64,000 nt of DNA from Promethearchaeota archaeon (GTDB taxonomy: Archaea; Asgardarchaeota; Lokiarchaeia; Sigyniarchaeales; SOKP01). Within the stretch, counting starts at the first letter, position 1. Every line of letters begins with the position of its first letter. The stretch covers positions 135,966 through 199,965 of the forward strand of contig JAUWGH010000006.1 in NCBI GenBank assembly GCA_030606485.1, read 5' to 3'. The notes beneath the pieces are model-generated. The model worked only from the letters and a program-made list of their open reading frames with translations. It ran no database searches and was not told where the DNA came from. Shown in pieces: positions 1 through 10,140 of this stretch. Both the position numbers and the translations under genes were made by a program.

Positions 1-203
1 ATAAAGTTATTTTAATTGGAATTAGAGTATCTGAAAAGTCAGAATGGTCACAATTGATGGAAGAATTTGATATCAACGAACAGGCGGAGGAAAAAATGAT
101 CTCACTCTTATTCTTTAAAATTGGACAAGAATATCGCTCGGAAATATACGAACAACTTGAAATTATGCTGGATACGATCAAAAATCTTCTTTTTGTTTAT
201 TAA
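1..203 (+). CDS. 3' end of an upstream Roadblock/small-GTPase paralog (partial; start lies outside the window)
   Basis: The frame starting at nt 3 reads ...KVILIGIRVSEKSEWSQLMEEFDINEQAEEKMISLLFFKIGQEYRSEIYEQLEIMLDTIKNLLFVY*, with TAA at 201-203. By manual alignment, about 53 of 66 residues match the C-terminus of the 433..2070 product. Confidence 0.75.
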   Translation, partial: KVILIGIRVSEKSEWSQLMEEFDINEQAEEKMISLLFFKIGQEYRSEIYEQLEIMLDTIKNLLFVY

Positions 204-432: not shown

Positions 433-2070
433 TTGCCAATAAATAAAGCTCTACTCTTTACTGAATTGCTGAATAATTTTTTGGAAATTAATAAAGAATT
501 AATAGCTGTAATTGTCTCTGATGAAGACGGATATATTATTGCTGGGGAAAAAAGAAAAGACATTGATATAGAAATAGTCTCTTTTTTAACCGCTGTTGTT
601 AATCCAATATTAGAACGGATTCGTAAAGAATTTACATTTAAAAAGTTTGGGACAGCAAGTTTCGATACCGAAGATAATCGATTACTATTTGTTTCTGTGG
701 ATGAAGCAACAACTTTAAGTTTTGTTTTGGAGCAAATGAGTTCTGTTGATAAGTTAGCGCCTTATGCATATTTTCTAGCTGAAAAGATTGCACAAATTCT
801 TACCGCTGTTGAAGGTGATTTAATACAATTAACTATTCCCAATTTCGAATATGAAGCGGAACTTTCTAAAAGTTCTGACAGATTAAAAAACCAAATTTAC
901 CAGAGTAAATTAGATCACGGGGGGATGTATCGTTTTAAATTTATAATAATTGGGGATCACGAAGTTGGGAAGACCTCAATAATTCGTAGGTTTGTAGAAA
1001 ATAAATTTTTAGCAGATTATCGTACGACCATAGGCCTTAATATTATGTCACATAATTTTGAAGCTTTTGGAAATAAGATTAACTTGTGGCTCTGGGATAT
1101 TGGTGCACAACAATATTTCAAAAGATTTCGAAAAACTTATTATAATGGTGCCCAAGCCGCATTCATCGTTTTTGACTTAACATCTCAAGAAACATTTGAA
1201 AATCTAAAAAATTGGCACAATGAGCTTAAAGAATTCATTGAGAATAAAGATTTACCAATAATAATAGTAGGAAATAAAAATGATTTGACTGAGCAAAGAG
1301 TAATTAGCTATCAAGATGGTGTGAAATTAGCAAGCGATTTATCTGATTTATCAAGTTTATTTGATTCATCTATTTTATCTGAGTTTTCTGATCTATCTGA
1401 TTTATCTGAAGGTATAAAAACTAAGATATCATATATTGAAACAAGTGCATTAACTGGAGATAATGTTGAATACGCTTTTCGGTTAATTTCTTATCATTTT
1501 ATGTTAAAAAGTAAGGAAATAGAAGAAAAAAGATTAAAAAATGCGGTATTGGGTGAAATTGATTCAATTTTAGAGGATCATGATTCTTTAACTCTGTCCT
1601 TTATTACTGAAGATCCATTATGGAGCCCTTGTTTACAGATTTTGGCAGGAATAGGAGAATTAGGGGATTATTTAAAAGTAAAAGATAAAGAGAACGAAAA
1701 AATATTTGAATATTCAAATGGGTTAGTTTTAAAGAATTTTGATTGTGAATCATTTAAAATTTCTGATTCTAATGGCGTCTTTTGTATATTTGATGCGAGA
1801 GAGAAAGAACATATTGAACCAAAATGGAAGGATACAGTAATTAAAATCATTGAAAAAATCAAAAAAAACAGAGTAATTTTAATTGGAATTAGGGTTTCTG
1901 AAGAGACAGAATGGTCACAATTGATGGAAGAATTTGATGTTAGCGAGAAGGCGGAAGAAAAAATGATATCACTCCTGTTCTTTAAAATTGGAGAAGAACA
2001 TCGCTTGGAAATTTACAACCAACTTGAAGTCATGCTGAATACTATTAAAAATCTTCTTTTTAATTATTAA
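433..2070 (+). CDS. Roadblock/LC7 (MglB-like) domain fused to a Ras/Rab-like small GTPase, followed by a ~190-aa C-terminal domain
   Basis: 545-aa ORF with a TTG start preceded by AGAGGA. The N-terminal ~125 aa resemble Roadblock/LC7 (LIAVIVSDEDGYIIAGE...). G-domain motifs are G1 GDHEVGKTS (nt 952-978), G3 WDIGAQ, G4 GNKND and G5 ETSALTG. Confidence 0.85.
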   Translation: MPINKALLFTELLNNFLEINKELIAVIVSDEDGYIIAGEKRKDIDIEIVSFLTAVVNPILERIRKEFTFKKFGTASFDTEDNRLLFVSVDEATTLSFVLEQMSSVDKLAPYAYFLAEKIAQILTAVEGDLIQLTIPNFEYEAELSKSSDRLKNQIYQSKLDHGGMYRFKFIIIGDHEVGKTSIIRRFVENKFLADYRTTIGLNIMSHNFEAFGNKINLWLWDIGAQQYFKRFRKTYYNGAQAAFIVFDLTSQETFENLKNWHNELKEFIENKDLPIIIVGNKNDLTEQRVISYQDGVKLASDLSDLSSLFDSSILSEFSDLSDLSEGIKTKISYIETSALTGDNVEYAFRLISYHFMLKSKEIEEKRLKNAVLGEIDSILEDHDSLTLSFITEDPLWSPCLQILAGIGELGDYLKVKDKENEKIFEYSNGLVLKNFDCESFKISDSNGVFCIFDAREKEHIEPKWKDTVIKIIEKIKKNRVILIGIRVSEETEWSQLMEEFDVSEKAEEKMISLLFFKIGEEHRLEIYNQLEVMLNTIKNLLFNY

Positions 2071-2205: not shown

Positions 2206-3453
2206 TTAGAATTCAACTTTCTCTGGATAAGCAACTTCTAATAATTCGAGGGCTTTCTTAGCAATTTCATGTGTTATTCTTTCATCTTTATTTTTAAAAG
2301 CTTCTCTGATTTTAGGAAGTAAGTATTCAGGAAAAAATATTAGAGGTTTAATATCAGTTAATAAAAATATCCAATTCCTTTCATCTTTATCTTTTATCTC
2401 AATTATCACATTAGACTCTTTTAAATCATTTAATATCATTTCAGTATCGGCGAATTCTGAAAAAATCTTTGGCATTTTATCTAAGGGATAATATTTACTT
2501 CTCATTAAAACGAAAAAATCATATACATCTGGATTCAAAAGAATAGAAGCTAAATATTTCGTTTCTTCAATGGACTGTGTATTAGGATCGTACTTAGAAA
2601 AGAAATCAACTACTTTTTGTTCATATTTAGGATATAACACATGATTGATTTCTTTTAAATGGTTTAATAATTTTATGTCTGGAACTCGGACTAAAAATAT
2701 ATCTTTTGTTAAAAATAAAAATTCACCCTGACGACCAATTAAACCCGTTCTTTTATCCCTTTTTCCTTTAATCCAATCACGTTTTATTAAGTTTAATTCT
2801 AAAAAAGGGTCAAGTAGCACATCCACATTAGGATTCTCTTTTATTTTTTCTAATGCATTTCTCAATTCATTTTTTGAAATAGGTTTTTCTCGTAAAAGTT
2901 CTAATATTTTTAGTCTCTCTTCACTTTGAAAAATCAAAGCTGCTTTCTGTATTTTATCTAATTGAGATAAACGATCAATTTCAAAGATGGCAAATTTTAA
3001 TTCACTCTCAATTTTAGAAATCATTTTATCAAGCAGAGAAATTTGCTTTAATTCACTTATTTTTACTAATGCTTCGAAATTACTATTTAATTTTTCTGCC
3101 ATATTTTTAATTATATCCCAAAATATTTCGACCTCATCCTCCAATTCAAAAATTGATATCGTTAAATATTGAAAACCATCAGATTCTTGTCTAAAATATG
3201 AAACAATTTGATATGGTGTTTCTTTTAATCTTCCTGAGTAAAAATTACTAAAAACACCTTTATCTGCAACTATTCCAGTTGTATGTTGATAAAATATTCC
3301 AAAAATATCATTTTGAACAATTAATTCCGAATAATTAGCTTCAGTGAATTTTTGATTATTAAAAACTAGTTTTATCGGTCTGAATTCCGGTACAAATTCG
3401 CCCGTTTCTGTTTGATTTAAAACAAATTTAAAAATTAAAATACCTTGAATCAT
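2206..3453 (-). CDS. Hypothetical protein; alpha/beta N-domain, coiled coil, two probable winged-helix segments
   Basis: 415-aa uninterrupted ORF in an AT-rich genome where stop codons are frequent. The middle segment ERLKILELLREKPISKNELRNALEKI...GEFLFLTKDIFLVRVP looks like a winged helix. No enzyme motif recognised. Confidence 0.6.
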   Translation of the reverse strand: MIQGILIFKFVLNQTETGEFVPEFRPIKLVFNNQKFTEANYSELIVQNDIFGIFYQHTTGIVADKGVFSNFYSGRLKETPYQIVSYFRQESDGFQYLTISIFELEDEVEIFWDIIKNMAEKLNSNFEALVKISELKQISLLDKMISKIESELKFAIFEIDRLSQLDKIQKAALIFQSEERLKILELLREKPISKNELRNALEKIKENPNVDVLLDPFLELNLIKRDWIKGKRDKRTGLIGRQGEFLFLTKDIFLVRVPDIKLLNHLKEINHVLYPKYEQKVVDFFSKYDPNTQSIEETKYLASILLNPDVYDFFVLMRSKYYPLDKMPKIFSEFADTEMILNDLKESNVIIEIKDKDERNWIFLLTDIKPLIFFPEYLLPKIREAFKNKDERITHEIAKKALELLEVAYPEKVEF

Positions 3454-3615
3454 TTAATATCAACCCCTAACATACTAGTTAAAATTTTTTCATTTATTCA
3501 TTAAATTTTATAATGGCAATTAATGCTAATAATTATATAGTTTTATTATTAGTATTGTACTAATTACTATTCAATAGTACTCCCAAATATTTATAATAAG
3601 TGGTAAAAATTAGGG

Positions 3616-6600
3616 TTGGTTATTTTGAAAAAAAAAAATAGCATAAGTTATAAAAAAATTTTAATTCTATTCAGTTTAATACTTATATTCTCTTTAATTT
3701 TCATTACGCCTGGTATTTACACAAATAAAAATGGATATTTTAATAATCCTACTGATGAAACTAATACTGATGAAATCAATACTGATCTTCAGAATAAAGA
3801 TTTTAGGTCTCAAGGTATAACCTCCGATAATATTTATTCAGGAATTGGGGCTCCTTGGAATCTAACTCATTGGGCTAATCGAACGGATTATGATATCCCA
3901 GTAGATTTTACTAGTCCACTTATACCTAATGATGATGGTAAATGGGGTAGAATGTGTCCGCTTGTAATACAATCTAGTAAGGTTAATAGCGACTTATCGA
4001 ATTTCACTATCCTTTTAACAAATGATACACTTCCATCTGAAATGTTTAATGCAGATGGTCTTTACCCTGCATTAGATGGTGGAGGGGATATTCGTTTTTC
4101 GACCGATCTAAACGGTGACAACCTTCTTCCCTGTGAAATAGTCACATTTACAACTGATAACAACCCTGCTAACGGTAAAGCTGAGATTTGGGTTAAAGTT
4201 CCTTCTATTAGTTCCTCTACCGATACCACCATCTATGTCTGGTATAACAAACTTGGATACAACGAAGCTGCAATGAACCAACCTGCTGCGGATGATATTC
4301 TTGGTTCGGAAGCTGTGTGGTCAAATAACTTTGAGGGCGTTTGGCATTTGAATGAAAGTTCTGGGAGCGCAAAAGACAGTACATCTAATGGATATGATGG
4401 CTCTTTTCAAGGAGATTTACCAGACGCTCAAATTGGACAAATTGGGGAGGGACAAGATCTTGATGGAACCGGCGATTATGTAGATATAGGCGATGCAGGA
4501 ACTGGGATACAGACTATTGAGTTTTGGATGGAATCAGATGATCTTACTGATAGTTTGGATACTGATACTGGTTGGAATATTCCAAGTAATTATGATGATG
4601 ATTATTGGGATTGGGATTATCCAGGTAATGTCTCCACAAATAATAATCAATACGCATCAGAGCCCGATGCTAGTGGTTCACAAGATTGGTATGACTTTAA
4701 TTTTGGTATACCCGGCGGTTCTTCGATCAATGGTATTTGGGTACATATTGAAGCAAATGAAATGGGTGTGGGTACTGCTGGTGCAGACATTGAACTTTCT
4801 TGGAATGGAGGTAATTCTTATACCAGCACAGGTTATGGAGATGACTACTCTGGTTCTGATGTTAATTATTATTATGGTAGTTCATCAGATCTTTGGGGCA
4901 GAGTATCATGGGCTGATACTGAATTAAGCAACGCTAATTTTAGGGTTAGATTAACGAAAAATGGTGTAACAACTCCTAGAGTTGACCTTCTAAGGGTAAG
5001 GGTTTATTATACCATAACCAACGTTAACAGGAAAATAATTGATATAGATGGTACCGACCAGATAGAAATCGACGGAAGTACTGCTGATATACTTGCCACT
5101 AGTTTTCCAGGTACTACAACAATTTATGTAGACGGAGCAGTTGCATCTGGTGTAACAACAAACTGGCATCATGTTGTAATTACTGATACGACCGGAGTCA
5201 ATCCTTCTGATATGGATATTGGTCGAGTTTCATCAAGGTACTTTGACGGTATCATCGATGAGGTCCGGATCTCAGATACTGTAAGAAGTGCCGACTGGAT
5301 TAATTCACTATACAACAATCAAGATGATCCGAGCACCTTTGTTATTAACGGAACTCCAATAGAGGGCGGCATCATCTCAATCTATATTATCGAACAAATA
5401 TCTAATATTGTAGATATGCCTTTAGATCTTGGGTGGCAAGGTAAAAAATTAAACGCTACCATAAAGGACTTGTATGATAAAAGAAATTGGATCAATGGAA
5501 CTTTCCACGCTGGACCTGATGATAATGACCCTTCCTGTCCTGAAAATGATAGTATTTATCTTCAAAATTGGACTTATGGTGAATATGATGTTGTGGGTGA
5601 TTATAGTAATGATATGTCTGGAAATTATTTTGATAGCACAAACGATCCTTCTAACAATGGCAGTGATTGCTTGGAATTAAGAATGGATGGAGATGGTTTT
5701 GGATATGATAAATATGATAGATGTTGGTGGGAGTCGAATTTCACTTTGCCAAGGGGAAAGGTGATTGAGGGTGAAATAAATCTTGTGATATGTCCTTATA
5801 CGCAATATTACGAAACCCGTGAGTTTGGAACGCATTGGAGTGTTCAAGTTATCTTAAATGGTATAGTAATTGATGACAAGAATCTTATATGGTTAGAATA
5901 TAGTGGGGGTGGTGATTGGTATCCCTTGAAATTACAGTTAACGAATTGGTTAGACGATCCAATAGTATTTCCGGATAATGAGAAAAATATGAGCCTTAGG
6001 ATACAATTAATAAGAAATGGACCAACACTTAGTCACGGCCCGTATGGTTCATATCAACAAGTACTTTTTGATGACGTATCATTAATCGTAAAAACAGAGG
6101 TTAAACCTACTCAAATCGGCTTAAAAATGAACCAAACTGCTGTTATAGATACTTCAAATTGGGGTGAAGGCACTGTAGAAATAGATGGTGATTGGAATGG
6201 CACCCAGTTTCCTTTAGTGCACGCTAATTTTAGCAATGATGAGGTCTGGGCATTAGGTGATTATGATATCGATTTTAAAACGAATGTAAATCTTTTTGCG
6301 ACAAAACATACTCCAGAAACTAATTATGAGACAAATGCAGCTTCGTTAGGCACCGGGTTTTCTGTAAGTAATGATAGTTTAGTAAATTGGGAATGTTATG
6401 GGTATACTTCGGTCCCAACGGGATATGCCGAAACAGAAATGAGACTTGAATTTCCAACTGATGTTTATATCACTTGGGTTTCCTATCCTTCAGACCCGCT
6501 TATTAATAAATTAGATTTATGTGATAATTCAACTGCTGGACTTTTAATTGTTAACGTGTCCAAAATATCAGCTACACCAGATGGTTTTTGGAAGTTTGAA

Positions 6601-9600
6601 GCAATATCCCCAAATTATTTTGAGCAATTAAATATATATAACAATGCTACAGGTAGTTGGATCGAAGATAACGAATTTTTAAGTGGAGAATATATAAATA
6701 TTACTGCGAAAATAACGAATAGTCCATTGATATCTGCTTATATTTTGGATACTAAAGCAATTCTCCATGTAAGATTCCCAAATGGCACTATATGGACAGA
6801 AAAAACACAAGAAAAAAACCTTATTTCAAACGGTTTTGTTTATTTTGATTCTTTTCAAATACCTTCCAACATTCCTAATTATAAAGTAGGAGAATATGAT
6901 GCAATAATTTCGTGGAATAATTCTCATTCTATTTATGGGTTAAATGAAACTGGCATAATCTACAAAAAATTTACCGTAATTCACAATTCTACATTAATAC
7001 CTGACCAAAGCTATTACGCAGATATATTTGAAGGCACTTCAATAAATTTAAAAGTTTCATTTAATGATCTTAAAGATGGCAAGGCTATAGAGGGTGCTGT
7101 TGTATATACATATAATTTTACTCATCCTACTATAATACAGAATTTCAGTGAAATTAGTCCAGGTTATTATGTTTTTTTAGATTTTAATGTTAGTGGTGCT
7201 CCACAAGCTGGTGATAATATTATAACAATTTATGCAAATTCTTCTTTATATACGAATAATGAAGTTGATGTAACTATTGAAGTAATAAAAGCAACGACTC
7301 TTACTGTAGATAAGTCAATTTTATCTGTCCAGTGGAATGATAATTTTACAATCCAATTAAACTATACTGAGGAAGTTAGTGGGACAGGTATTGATACTAC
7401 ACCAATAAATAATTGGGTAGGAGAAACCCATACTGTTAGAATCTCTCAAGGAGTATATAACATAACTTGTAATAGTTCCGCATATGAAGTAAATAAACGT
7501 TATAATTTATATGTTGATTTTAATGAAACTGGTTATGAAACACAATCAATAACAACTATAATTGAAATTGTTGAAAGAGAAACATATATCGACGATATTT
7601 TCATAAATGGTAGTGATTGCACGACTAATAAATCTTATAATGTTAAAGCAGGAGAACTTTTGAATCTTACCGTAAAATATAGGGATATTGAAACAGGTGG
7701 GACTTTTATTAATAATGCTCTAGTAAAATTAATAGGAACGGGAATAGAAAAGACTTTTAACGAAAGGATATCATTCCAATACTATAACTTAACTTTAAAT
7801 TCAACAGAATTAGGTGTTGGCGTAAAGTTTTTAACTATTACTGCTCAAAAAGATAATTATACATCTGCTTCAGAATTGTTAACCATAACTGTTTTTGAAA
7901 GAGGAACTAATTATATTTTATATTTGAATGAAACTGATTCTACAAGCGATCCATCTTACCAACTAACTGATAACCAGCTCTTGAATATCACTGTCTCCTA
8001 TATAGATACAATATTGACGGAACATATTAGTGGTGCTACAGTGGATATAAACGGATCAGGAATCTCTAAACAATTTGTTGAGGCTTTCAATAATTATTCT
8101 GTAGAAATAAATTCGACAGATTTAAATCTAGGTGTAAATTTTTTAACTATCTATGCTCAAAAAGAAACTTATGAACCCCAATCAATACTGATTACAATAG
8201 AAGTAATACAAATAGAAACAGAATTAAATCTATATTTAGATGGAGAGGATAAAACAAGTGAACCATCAATTACAAAATATACAAATCAGAGCTTAAATAT
8301 TACAATATCGTATAGAGAGTTCGAAATACCCAATAAACATGTTAGCGGAGCTATAGTGGACATAAATGGATCAGGAATATCTGAGCCTTTATATGAGGCA
8401 TTCAATAATTATTCTGTGCTTATAAATACGACTAAATTAAATCTAGGAGCAAATTTTTTAACAATTTATGCTCGTAAAGATAAGTATGAACCACAAACGA
8501 TTTTACTTTCGATAGAGATAATACAAATAGAAACAAATTTAACATTATATAAAAATGGGATAGATATAACAGCTATACCATCAATTAAACAATACACAAA
8601 TCAAATTCTAAATATTACAGTATCATATAAAGAGGCTACAGGTCCCTACAAACATGTGAGCGGCGCTATAGTTGATATAAATGGATCGGGAATTTCAAAG
8701 GTTTTTAATGAATTAGGAACCAATTATTCAGTTCTTATTGATACTACAAATCTTAATCAAGGAGCAAATTTTCTGACAATTTATGCTCGTAAAGAAAACT
8801 TTGAGCCTCAAACGATTTTACTTACAATAGAGATAATACAAATAGAAACAGACTTAAAGTTATTTTTAAATGGAGTGGATAAAACAAATGAACCTTCTAT
8901 TGACGTAATTACACTTGAAACTTTAAATATCACTATAAAATATACCACTTATGGAACTGGAGTCCATATTAGTAATGCAACAATTGAATTATCTGGAAGT
9001 GGACTTTCGATAAATATAAGTGAAAATCTTGGTTTAAAGCAATATTCATTTATTATTAATACAATAGATTTAAACGTAGGATTTAATTTCTTAACAGTTT
9101 ATGCTCAGAAAAGCAATTATGAAGCTCAAACGATTTTAATCACAATACAGCTAATTGAAAGAAAAGCATATGATGAGATATATTTAGACAATGAAGATAA
9201 AACACTTGAAAAATCAATCGAAACTCCAATAGGTAAGGAGTTAAATATCACTTTTAAATATTTTGACGATATAACAGGAAATCACATTCCTCAAGCACTA
9301 GTACAACTTATAGGAGCAGGACATACTTGGAATTTTACGGAAAATAATTCATTAAAGCAATATTCGCTAATTATAGATACTACAGAATTAGATATTGGAC
9401 TTAAATTTCTAACCATATATGCTCAAAGGACATATTATCAATCTTCTTCAGAGCTTTTAGAGATAACTGTTAGACAAATAAAAACAAATATTACAACAGA
9501 ATCTGGAGAAGATGTAATAAATATACAAGCTGGTGAATCTTATACTCTAAGAATAACTTTACATGATTTAGATTTTGGAAGTATAATAAAGAATGCAACT

Positions 9601-10140
9601 GTTAGATATACATGGGAATTAGGACAAGGTTACCTTACAGATGATGATAATAATGGCATTTTTGAGGTCACATTAGAAAATATACCTGAAGGCACTTTTA
9701 CTATTACTTTCACTATTTTGAATGTAAGTGATGATTATTTATTTGAGCGAAAAACAATAACTCTAAATGTGGTTAGTCCTCCAGAAGAAACTCTAATATT
9801 TCTGATATTAACTATAGTCGCCATTGCTGCCTTTATTAGTGTCACCAGTTATTTCATAGCATATCAAAGAGTATTAAAGTATCCAAAACCTGTTAGAAAA
9901 ATTCATAAATTCAAGAAGACTTTAAAGAAGAAAAAATCTCCTGATGTTGAAATTCTCTCGAGTAAAGTTCTATTAAAAGCCCTCTACAATGAAGAATTAG
10001 ATCCTGTTGCTAAACTTTTTAAAGGGAAGATGAAATATGAACAACCAGAAAAACAACTAGAACTAAAACCATCAAAAGATGAATTAATTGATACTTTATC
10101 CGAAATATCACCTGAAGAATCCGAAAAAAATGAGAAATAA
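3616..10140 (+). CDS. Giant type-I membrane surface protein (DUF2341 + LamG/concanavalin-like + tandem beta-rich repeats)
   Basis: 2174-aa ORF with an N-terminal hydrophobic signal/anchor (ILILFSLILIFSLIFITPGIY). DUF2341-like block: GGGDIRFS...EIWVKVPSISSSTDTTIYVWYN. LamG-like block: WHLNESSGSAKDSTSNGYDG...FDGIIDEVRISDTVRSADWI. C-terminal TM (LIFLILTIVAIAAFISVTSYFIA) followed by a Lys-rich ~95-aa tail. Many N-x-S/T sequons. Confidence 0.85.
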   Translation: MVILKKKNSISYKKILILFSLILIFSLIFITPGIYTNKNGYFNNPTDETNTDEINTDLQNKDFRSQGITSDNIYSGIGAPWNLTHWANRTDYDIPVDFTSPLIPNDDGKWGRMCPLVIQSSKVNSDLSNFTILLTNDTLPSEMFNADGLYPALDGGGDIRFSTDLNGDNLLPCEIVTFTTDNNPANGKAEIWVKVPSISSSTDTTIYVWYNKLGYNEAAMNQPAADDILGSEAVWSNNFEGVWHLNESSGSAKDSTSNGYDGSFQGDLPDAQIGQIGEGQDLDGTGDYVDIGDAGTGIQTIEFWMESDDLTDSLDTDTGWNIPSNYDDDYWDWDYPGNVSTNNNQYASEPDASGSQDWYDFNFGIPGGSSINGIWVHIEANEMGVGTAGADIELSWNGGNSYTSTGYGDDYSGSDVNYYYGSSSDLWGRVSWADTELSNANFRVRLTKNGVTTPRVDLLRVRVYYTITNVNRKIIDIDGTDQIEIDGSTADILATSFPGTTTIYVDGAVASGVTTNWHHVVITDTTGVNPSDMDIGRVSSRYFDGIIDEVRISDTVRSADWINSLYNNQDDPSTFVINGTPIEGGIISIYIIEQISNIVDMPLDLGWQGKKLNATIKDLYDKRNWINGTFHAGPDDNDPSCPENDSIYLQNWTYGEYDVVGDYSNDMSGNYFDSTNDPSNNGSDCLELRMDGDGFGYDKYDRCWWESNFTLPRGKVIEGEINLVICPYTQYYETREFGTHWSVQVILNGIVIDDKNLIWLEYSGGGDWYPLKLQLTNWLDDPIVFPDNEKNMSLRIQLIRNGPTLSHGPYGSYQQVLFDDVSLIVKTEVKPTQIGLKMNQTAVIDTSNWGEGTVEIDGDWNGTQFPLVHANFSNDEVWALGDYDIDFKTNVNLFATKHTPETNYETNAASLGTGFSVSNDSLVNWECYGYTSVPTGYAETEMRLEFPTDVYITWVSYPSDPLINKLDLCDNSTAGLLIVNVSKISATPDGFWKFEAISPNYFEQLNIYNNATGSWIEDNEFLSGEYINITAKITNSPLISAYILDTKAILHVRFPNGTIWTEKTQEKNLISNGFVYFDSFQIPSNIPNYKVGEYDAIISWNNSHSIYGLNETGIIYKKFTVIHNSTLIPDQSYYADIFEGTSINLKVSFNDLKDGKAIEGAVVYTYNFTHPTIIQNFSEISPGYYVFLDFNVSGAPQAGDNIITIYANSSLYTNNEVDVTIEVIKATTLTVDKSILSVQWNDNFTIQLNYTEEVSGTGIDTTPINNWVGETHTVRISQGVYNITCNSSAYEVNKRYNLYVDFNETGYETQSITTIIEIVERETYIDDIFINGSDCTTNKSYNVKAGELLNLTVKYRDIETGGTFINNALVKLIGTGIEKTFNERISFQYYNLTLNSTELGVGVKFLTITAQKDNYTSASELLTITVFERGTNYILYLNETDSTSDPSYQLTDNQLLNITVSYIDTILTEHISGATVDINGSGISKQFVEAFNNYSVEINSTDLNLGVNFLTIYAQKETYEPQSILITIEVIQIETELNLYLDGEDKTSEPSITKYTNQSLNITISYREFEIPNKHVSGAIVDINGSGISEPLYEAFNNYSVLINTTKLNLGANFLTIYARKDKYEPQTILLSIEIIQIETNLTLYKNGIDITAIPSIKQYTNQILNITVSYKEATGPYKHVSGAIVDINGSGISKVFNELGTNYSVLIDTTNLNQGANFLTIYARKENFEPQTILLTIEIIQIETDLKLFLNGVDKTNEPSIDVITLETLNITIKYTTYGTGVHISNATIELSGSGLSINISENLGLKQYSFIINTIDLNVGFNFLTVYAQKSNYEAQTILITIQLIERKAYDEIYLDNEDKTLEKSIETPIGKELNITFKYFDDITGNHIPQALVQLIGAGHTWNFTENNSLKQYSLIIDTTELDIGLKFLTIYAQRTYYQSSSELLEITVRQIKTNITTESGEDVINIQAGESYTLRITLHDLDFGSIIKNATVRYTWELGQGYLTDDDNNGIFEVTLENIPEGTFTITFTILNVSDDYLFERKTITLNVVSPPEETLIFLILTIVAIAAFISVTSYFIAYQRVLKYPKPVRKIHKFKKTLKKKKSPDVEILSSKVLLKALYNEELDPVAKLFKGKMKYEQPEKQLELKPSKDELIDTLSEISPEESEKNEK
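7561..9480 (+). repeat. Six tandem in-frame coding repeats (309-330 nt, ~103-110 aa) inside the giant surface protein
   Basis: Unit boundaries read at about 7561, 7891, 8200, 8515, 8830, 9148 and 9470. Recurring blocks are ...LNITxxY..., HVSGAIVDINGSGIS, NYSVLI.TT.LN.GANFLTIYA.K..YEPQTILL.IE.IQIET. Degenerate flanking copies lie at ~7300-7560 and ~9480-9780. Confidence 0.85.

Follow-up and report, generated by a model that had tools for sequence, protein, structure and literature searches.

The T417 gene and its family

We analysed a stretch of 64,000 nucleotides (nt) from a Promethearchaeota archaeon (contig JAUWGH010000006.1 of assembly GCA_030606485.1, positions 135,966 to 199,965 of the forward strand), hereafter called the window, and within it the gene of a 415-amino-acid (415-aa) protein whose family is linked, by gene position and by fusion, to the cytoplasmic tails of surface proteins in related genomes. 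We label its family T417, from the usual length of 417 aa. In the window, whose G+C content is ~29%, the gene stands between two neighbours (Table 1): a giant surface-protein gene, transcribed divergently across an intergenic region in which both promoters presumably sit, and a Ras-family GTPase gene, which is convergent with T417 and separated from it by a 135-nt gap. A reading made earlier from the letters of the DNA (the sequence-only reading) had described the open reading frame (ORF), the convergent GTPase gene and the surface-protein gene 162 nt away in these terms, and our analysis agrees. It had also spoken of a GTPase array; a tandem copy does exist, but the window shows one complete GTPase gene plus a 66-codon remnant. 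The surface-protein gene, which that reading mentioned only in passing, proved to be the key partner, with a much stronger link to T417 than the GTPase; the link to P735 (below) is likewise much stronger. Further labels used below are GTPase545 for the 545-aa GTPase, Giant for the surface-protein neighbours, P735 for a protein of ~730 aa encoded downstream of T417, Arf345 for a longin–Arf fusion in related loci, and crown clade for the large, shallow group of T417 orthologues in our tree.

Table 1. Features of the T417 locus, in window coordinates
Feature	Position	Strand	Remarks
T417 gene	2206..3453	(-)	415 aa, ATG start; longin-like / coiled-coil / double winged-helix family, Asgard-wide
T417 aa 1-105, longin-like N-domain	3139..3453	(-)	beta-beta-alpha-beta-beta-beta; predicted from DSSP of the AlphaFold2 (AF2) model and Foldseek
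T417 aa 106-176, antiparallel helical hairpin ('coiled coil')	2926..3138	(-)	helices 108-135 and 138-176, model confidence (pLDDT) ~70
T417 aa 177-258, winged helix 1 (wH1)	2680..2925	(-)	ArsR/SmtB-like; sub-threshold Pfam, Foldseek, conservation
T417 aa 259-330, helical linker domain	2464..2679	(-)	helices 260-268, 274-285, 295-305 and 308-317 in the AF2 model
T417 aa 331-415, second winged-helix-like unit (wH2) and C-terminal helices	2209..2463	(-)	predicted from the AF2 model
Divergent intergenic region, T417 / surface-protein gene	3454..3615		exactly 162 nt
Giant type-I surface-protein gene	3616..10140	(+)	2174 aa
Transmembrane segment (9793-9864) and 91-aa cytoplasmic tail	9793..10137	(+)	tail starts YQRVLKYPKPVRKIHKFKKTLKKKK
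GTPase gene: Roadblock-like N-domain, Ras-family G domain, C-domain of unknown type	433..2070	(+)	545 aa, convergent with T417
3' end (66 codons) of tandem GTPase paralogue	3..203	(+)	...KVILIGIRVSEKSEWSQLMEEFD...LLFVY*

Homologues of T417 are numerous. A search of 5.8 billion proteins returned at least 600, and the best 120 of these 600 matches are full-length (415-420 aa), 61-100% identical, all annotated as hypothetical and without a Pfam domain. Scanning one genome per GTDB species gave 133 stretches that encode T417; the best 80 cover the whole protein, with identities of 57-88%. At least 80 species-level Promethearchaeota genomes encode a 417-aa orthologue of full length that is 57-66% identical, and the close relatives all come from metagenome-assembled genomes of this phylum (Asgard, mostly Lokiarchaeia-type). 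When 1.84 billion cluster representatives were searched exhaustively with HMMER, 155 clusters (50% identity level) were found, among them full-length orthologues that are 33-46% identical, a wider group of ~360-380-aa proteins with the T417 layout, and large multidomain proteins that carry the family unit C-terminally. A profile built from this wider group picks up proteins with Odin, Njord, Hel, Hermod, Hod, Sigyn and Loki labels; the Odin relatives include WEU40564.1 from the closed Odinarchaeum yellowstonii LCB_4 genome, and the Hel relatives are a 570-600-aa form, some with TPR repeat matches. The sequence-only reading had called the protein an orphan, a status that these searches refute, with orthologues at 57-90% identity.

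Among 63 orthologues, 92 alignment columns are invariant. Given this conservation, the spread of homologues and the fixed length, the T417 gene is real, old and strongly constrained, and a chance ORF is ruled out because both length and start are kept in hundreds of sequences. As the sequence-only reading had noted, the product has no enzyme motif: Pfam gave no match above threshold and NCBIfam no match at all. Sequence searches of the PDB, whether started from the protein or from family profiles, returned noise only (Mnd1, CdiI and designed repeat proteins). On these sequence comparisons, T417 is a conserved and unnamed family found Asgard-wide.

Surface-protein neighbours and their cytoplasmic tails

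ORFs were called in 92 related loci, covering ~80 species loci, and labelled by BLAST. The gene order is near-invariant, with one to three surface-protein paralogues on the minus strand, T417 on the plus strand and P735 on the plus strand after a gap of ~30 nt; a metallo-beta-lactamase-fold gene and a FAD-binding gene usually follow. T417 is always divergent from the surface-protein paralogues, and the arrangement is kept in every locus with a spacer of 112-388 nt. These neighbours range from ~460 to >2500 aa and their ectodomains are variable, yet every one of them combines a hydrophobic segment at the N-terminus with a transmembrane segment at the C-terminus. The Giant of the window combines DUF2341, Ig-like repeats, a hydrophobic segment at aa 15-33, which is presumed to be a signal peptide, and the C-terminal transmembrane segment. 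The 5' part of its gene (window 4001-6000) has a G+C fraction of 0.386, compared with 0.26-0.31 in the flanking bins.

A juxtamembrane motif, YQ.VLKYPKPVRKVRKYR.TL, is present in 108 of the 111 complete surface proteins that adjoin T417 genes; its fuller consensus reads IAYQKVLKYPKPVRKVRKYRKTLKKKKAP..I..RE.AF, and its Y, P, R, K and L positions are 96-100% conserved. Mean identity is 59% over 28 juxtamembrane residues versus 40% over the last 300 ectodomain residues. A subset of the tails ends in a second conserved helix, 'LIxKSLEKKEELDKLV', which the window protein (tail 9865-10137) lacks and which may distinguish functional classes of the paralogues.

In other lineages the T417 unit and the tail are found in other arrangements. 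Five proteins (P0211, P0199, P0210, P0223 and P0233) are fusions in which an ectodomain is followed by a transmembrane segment, a basic motif akin to that of the T417 neighbours ('Y..I.YAKIP.FVKK.R..KK.I'), a linker of ~110 aa and a complete T417-like unit including the longin-like domain; P0211 carries DUF2341 and LamG, the former also present in the Giant of the window. L094, a metagenomic contig of 375 kb, encodes the two parts as separate genes: a 2224-aa surface protein bearing this type of tail is followed, after a gap of 1 nt from its stop, by the T417-like P0403. In Odinarchaeum LCB_4 (L093), a T417-like gene and the gene of a 1552-aa type-I protein lie on the same strand two genes apart, and the tail of the latter after its transmembrane segment reads YKGVKYYQWVKKPIQVKK. 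Because fusion, operon and conserved divergent pairing occur in separate lineages, there is good comparative evidence that the T417 family and the surface-protein tails are functionally linked, and the link is probably physical. It is the strongest of the genomic links of T417. On L094, a pair formed by a 137-aa longin-like protein and a 244-aa Ras-like GTPase (L094:11337-12487) is also found 2.2 kb from the T417-like gene.

P735 is encoded downstream of T417 in almost all genomes (L011:7829-10036, L001:9284-11488 and ~65 other loci). It was not found within the 64-kb window and, by the gene order in L008, L011 and L014, should lie beyond the left edge. P735 has no match in Pfam, NCBIfam or PDB, and an hhalign comparison with T417 gave nothing. 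Its N-domain, with a CxxC...H...H pattern, is accompanied by a TrmB-like winged helix (sub-threshold), by apolipoprotein-like helix over ~240 residues and by a very conserved globular domain (...DIWFIRSPE...NFRIAT...VDYRHR...NLWGINRDYEEV...). The constancy of the T417–P735 pair, which with its ~30-nt gap is the most constant feature of the locus, together with the long helical region of P735, could be read differently: the two proteins may form a structural or chromosome-associated complex unrelated to surface proteins, either a 'KITE-like' subunit with tandem winged helices and its coiled-coil partner or a housekeeping scaffold, and the neighbourhood would be inherited synteny. T417 gives weak Foldseek alignments to two tandem winged-helix proteins, JetB (8dk1_F) and an OCCM subunit (8s0e_8), but these come from a low-confidence model at probabilities of 0.09-0.41, and P735 contains no ATPase or SMC signature. 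Moreover, inherited synteny does not explain the fusions in distant lineages or the operon with a 1-nt gap, and we consider such a complex very improbable. The narrower version, in which T417 is a KITE/kleisin partner, was rejected, with no supporting structural matches or neighbours.

The third neighbour is less constant. A GTPase545 orthologue lies convergently between T417 and P735 in the window and in 11 of the ~80 loci, and it is tandemly duplicated in the window and in L014. GTPase545 is of the Ras/Roc/Arf type (Pfam Ras, E 4.7e-42), and in orthologues its N-terminal 140 residues give sub-threshold matches to Robl_LC7 (E 2.9e-4) and MP1 (LAMTOR3). In a neighbour-joining tree, rooted with distant orthologues and without support values, the GTPase-bearing loci form a basal grade plus the clade of the window; for this reason the adjacency of T417 and GTPase545 is probably ancestral and was later lost. 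The synteny with GTPase genes raised by the sequence-only reading is thus real, but it is missing in most genomes. Two further features of these genes were noted. The G domain of GTPase545 contains a Ser/Asp-rich low-complexity insert, SDLSDLSSLFDSSILSEFSDLSDLSEG, at ~aa 303-329. In L010, two T417 paralogues (L010:6811-8067 and L010:9908-11161) flank the convergent GTPase gene, with the second copy in the place of P735.

Predicted fold and comparison with longin regulators

The structure of T417 was modelled with AF2 using 63 orthologues, giving a mean predicted local distance difference test score (pLDDT) of 82.3 and a predicted TM-score (pTM) of 0.69. DSSP assigns strands at residues 2-14 and 20-31, a helix at 47-59, strands at 71-75, 81-89 and 95-103, and then the helix 108-135. 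The model therefore reproduces the beta-beta-alpha-beta-beta-beta-alpha start proposed from the sequence, and its topology is that of a longin domain, with the right strand order and no helix before beta1. Of the 'longin or Roadblock platform' of the sequence-only reading, the longin part stands; a Roadblock fold was rejected, as the first strand begins at residue 2 with no preceding helix and there is no Robl_LC7 match. The N-domain region has a pLDDT of 56-84 and is acidic (mean net charge -7.7), and its residues G18, P22 and F24 are invariant in close orthologues. A coiled coil followed by two winged-helix-like segments, the remaining part of that reading, appears in the model as the hairpin at 108-176, wH1 at 178-257 and the second unit at ~337-373. 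wH1 has three helices and a three-stranded wing at a pLDDT of around 90. The helical linker domain after it contains Y277 and Y288, both kept family-wide. wH2 comprises a helix at 337-346, strands at 350-354, 360-364 and 367-373, and further helices to 408 (pLDDT 90-93 in the full-length model). It is also acidic (net charge -4.1), contains an FPEYL motif, and has no independent match.

Foldseek comparison of the model with the PDB gave nothing below an E-value of 1e-3. The top match of the N-domain is 8yqg_A, the longin domain of a Lokiarchaeal Roadblock-Longin protein (E 5e-3, probability 1.0), followed by TRAPP subunits of the sedlin/Bet5/Trs23 type (7e2d_H and 7b6d_H, target-normalised TM-scores of 0.50 and 0.51), Lst4, and chains of folliculin, GATOR1 and C9orf72-SMCR8 complex entries. 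The best matches are thus longins, as the sequence-only reading would have it, but the statistics are weak (E 5e-3 to 0.2, target-normalised TM-scores of 0.4-0.5, 8-14% identity), LC7 light chains are matched as well, and PAS/LOV proteins, which belong to the same profilin-like fold class, score like the longins. The C-terminal part matches generic winged helices only, with ArsR and PadR among the matches of the good full-length model. When the C-terminal module was modelled separately with AF2 (17 sequences), pLDDT reached 61, versus ~90 for this region in the full-length model, and the Foldseek matches of the separate model (SrnR, BigR, CadC and NolR, target-normalised TM-scores of 0.5-0.6) were used for the class of wH1 only. 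Several relatives give sub-threshold Pfam matches at wH1 (HVO_A0261_N, HTH_20, HTH_5 and similar). As modelled, wH1 is a genuine ArsR-type winged helix. All of these fold labels are predictions with modest statistical support. An ESCRT-II-like protein, one of the relatives suggested earlier, was rejected: no ESCRT-II chain is in the top 50 of either Foldseek search, and none of the eight loci with precomputed Pfam labels shows a Vps4 or ESCRT-III gene.

GATOR1 acts on Rag GTPases, small GTPases that carry a Roadblock domain. The sequence-only reading had pointed out that longin domains recur with winged helices in eukaryotic GTPase regulators, and this is the published architecture of NPRL2 and NPRL3, an N-terminal longin with at least two C-terminal winged helix-turn-helix (wHTH) domains (PMC3747258). 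T417 has the same domain order in its model, a longin and then repeated wHTH units. It may be a GTPase regulator of the NPRL2/NPRL3-FLCN-SMCR8 kind, whose longin domain, possibly as a homodimer, would contact the G domain as a GTPase-activating protein (GAP) or guanine nucleotide exchange factor, with the winged helices as a scaffold. This is essentially the idea of the sequence-only reading. Low-confidence full-length Foldseek alignments to the GATOR1 chains 9o5d_C, 9o5a_C and 7t3b_C extend over 366-500 columns, and the immediate convergent neighbour in the basal lineages and the clade of the window is a GTPase orthologue whose N-domain is Roadblock-like. Across beta1, the loop and beta2, the wider T417 family shows a W-D-x-x-L-G-[ATV]-x6-Y-P pattern, whose W-D...G spacing around the conserved Gly parallels that of C9orf72 (W33-D34...G38-P39; PMC12290439) and of NPRL2 (FHPTLGPKITYQVP), minus the Pro. 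NPRL2-like longin families have also been reported in Asgard genomes by Liu et al. (bioRxiv 10.1101/2020.10.19.343400).

Other results argue against this assignment. Comparisons with longin, Roadblock, NPRL and FLCN families, a check proposed earlier, revealed no relationship at the sequence or profile level. For T417, 40 relatives and 22 N-domains, none of the Pfam families NPR2, Folliculin and Longin is listed, and T417 itself has no NPR2 match at E-values up to 1. An hhalign comparison of the family profile with an NPRL2 profile gave a probability of 0.4%, a weak test as the latter is shallow and contains vertebrates only (Neff 1.45); it was built from real sequences, and the query used to retrieve them proved 98-100% identical to database NPRL2. 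Comparison of the T417 N-domain with longin-Arf N-domains gave 0.3%, and a PDB profile search gave no longin match. GAP-type longins (FLCN, SMCR8 and NPRL2) have a Gly-Pro (GP) motif before beta2 and a conserved arginine finger, and Asgard longins bearing both are on record (PMC12290439). In T417 the GP dipeptide is absent, with G18-x3-P22 in its place and G followed by A, T or V in the wider family. An arginine finger is not conserved either, as R75 is kept in at least 90% of close orthologues, is replaced by K, Q, H or T at 33-46% identity and is variable in the wider family. Furthermore, T417 has an additional helical hairpin between the longin and wH1, no DEPDC5-like gene was seen in T417 loci, and in place of a DEPDC5-like subunit it is linked in the genome with surface-protein tails and a coiled-coil protein. 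The GTPase, in turn, is missing from the locus in most genomes. Since GP is absent, R75 is replaced and there is no Pfam or profile match, T417 appears unlikely to be a catalytic GAP longin, and a GTPase regulator of this kind is quite unlikely overall. T417 resembles GAP longins and NPRL2 in architecture, but it cannot be filed as a member.

With the GP longins of the FLCN/SMCR8/C9orf72 type, T417 has in common the predicted longin fold, the conserved Gly of the beta1-beta2 loop and, in the wider family, the 'WD' pair; the Asgard GP longins also share with it an Asgard origin and nearness to small GTPases. Their C-terminal part, however, is DENN, whereas that of T417 consists of two winged helices. 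Structurally, the N-domain comes closest to 8yqg (Tran et al. 2024, PMC10933270) and the TRAPP longins. These represent solved Asgard longin/Roadblock and TRAPP longins that are single-domain or GTPase-fused and, unlike T417, have neither winged helices nor a surface-protein link. A protein that looks like a true GP longin is encoded in some of the same genomes: in crown-clade loci, four to five genes downstream of T417, Arf345 (345 aa; L001:15588-16625(-), L003:13325-14371(-) and L005:15591-16631(-)) joins an Arf-like GTPase to a longin-like N-domain in which 'YFDQVIGP' supplies the GP motif and 'DSKFARGG' an Arg whose context is folliculin-like. From its motifs, Arf345 looks like a self-contained GAP-longin/GTPase fusion and would exemplify the GP-longin class here.

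A candidate adaptor for surface-protein tails

We tentatively favour, while holding it somewhat short of probable, the reading that T417 is a cytoplasmic adaptor or scaffold that binds the tails of single-pass surface proteins and whose longin head may dock a GTPase. In the proposed mechanism, acidic surfaces of the longin domain and/or wH2 would bind the basic tail, consistent with the charge complementarity between these domains (net charges of -7.7 and -4.1) and the strongly basic tail; the tail start of the 3616..10140 product, YQRVLKYPKPVRKIHKFKKTLKKKK, is the candidate docking site. By analogy with the platforms that longin and Roadblock domains form for GTPases (PMC3747258, PMC10933270), the longin domain would, at least ancestrally, bind the Roadblock-Ras GTPase encoded next to it. 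The nucleotide state of the GTPase would then control the coupling of the surface proteins to an intracellular partner, probably P735 with its long coiled coil; sorting, positioning, clustering or signalling would be possible outputs. The longin-fold sigma and mu-N subunits of AP complexes are recruited by Arf GTPases. T417 may act like them, as a longin-fold cytoplasmic reader of a single-pass tail motif under the control of a small GTPase. This is a functional analogy and implies no homology: T417 has winged helices and lacks adaptin trunk or ear partners.

Several points weigh against this adaptor reading. All links of T417 are genomic, and the binding steps are inferred from them. The GTPase is absent from the T417 locus throughout the large crown clade, and Asgard genomes are so rich in small GTPases that the loose proximity in L094 and L093 could be chance. 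Two of the four distant paralogue loci (Hel and Sigyn) have neither a surface-protein nor a GTPase neighbour. The surface-protein neighbours were found by BLAST to the window protein, and this set may partly reflect the tail itself. The longin assignment comes from a predicted structure with weak Foldseek statistics, at a level similar to that of PAS/LOV and CodY-type sensors. A regulator and the gene it controls are classically arranged as a divergent pair, the nearest structures to wH1 are those of ArsR/SmtB repressors, which bind DNA, and some T417 relatives have helix-hairpin-helix motifs, which usually bind DNA, replacing or preceding the longin.

These last points speak for the main rival reading, a transcription factor, in which a profilin-fold sensor (PAS, GAF or longin-like), a dimerising hairpin and an ArsR-type wHTH would regulate the divergent surface-protein genes and T417 itself; in a variant, the receptor tail would sequester T417 at the membrane until a signal releases it. 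In addition, the sub-threshold Pfam matches of wH1 extend to MarR and TrmB, beside HTH_20, HTH_5 and HVO_A0261_N, and CodY (GAF plus wHTH), SdiA and LOV-effector proteins are among the full-length Foldseek matches. One JGI record labels a fragment 'ArsR family regulator', wH1 is mildly basic (pI ~9), and P735 likewise has its sub-threshold TrmB-like winged helix. With ArsR/SmtB and CodY-type regulators, T417 thus shares the wH1 fold, an upstream sensor-like alpha/beta domain and divergent genes. It differs from them, however, in helix 3 of wH1 (NVDVLLDPFLELN; N209, D211, P216 and E219 invariant), which is acidic, hydrophobic and proline-containing, with hydrophobic residues where ArsR/SmtB have Ser, His or Gln and no basic or polar residue conserved family-wide. 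T417 also has the second winged helix and the helical domain, and it is acidic overall (pI 5.4). Giant membrane proteins carry entire T417-like units at their cytoplasmic end and the Hel versions have TPR, which suits a protein-protein scaffold better than a DNA binder. For a local regulator, 57-66% identity with a fixed length throughout an entire class would be unusual. A conserved palindromic operator was not found in the divergent spacer. The sole conserved block there is AT-rich (about ACTTAAGAAATAAT, or roughly ACTTAAGAAATAATTAT) and lies ~45-55 nt upstream of the T417 start in crown-clade loci (e.g. L001, L005 and L019); it is absent in the clade of the window (window 3454-3615). The block is probably a promoter, although it could be an operator. 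Taken together, we regard a transcription factor as a contender that is more doubtful than the adaptor. If T417 does bind DNA, it would be an ordinary, though widely conserved, regulator of surface-protein genes.

Longin proteins, their abundance in Asgard archaea and the presence of NPRL2-like longins there are already known. The papers that we searched and read describe neither the T417 family nor the constancy of its pairing with P735 nor a link to a conserved surface-protein tail motif. Asgard genomes are full of small GTPases, longin proteins and Roadblock proteins, and their genes rarely stand in informative operons (PMC10933270), which is why the cellular clients of these proteins are a long-standing question. 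The T417 locus offers a concrete candidate client, with a conserved tail motif, an unnamed longin/winged-helix family with fusions to tails of this kind in some lineages, and an ancestrally adjacent Roadblock-GTPase. Cultured Lokiarchaeia have no S-layer and bear many complex surface proteins on protrusions (PMC9834061), and the locus may bear on how such proteins connect to the interior. The adaptor reading has a more far-reaching form, which we consider unlikely but worth stating, namely a module of receptor tail, longin adaptor and Roadblock GTPase, in which the tails would recruit a longin/winged-helix adaptor whose architecture is NPRL2/3-like, the GTPase would act as the switch and P735 would be the effector. 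If this module is real, it would represent, in Asgard archaea, either a forerunner or an independent counterpart of two eukaryotic systems, cargo-tail/adaptor/Arf sorting and the membrane-anchored Ragulator-Rag-GATOR platforms, and the cell surface of Lokiarchaeia would be coupled to intracellular machinery.

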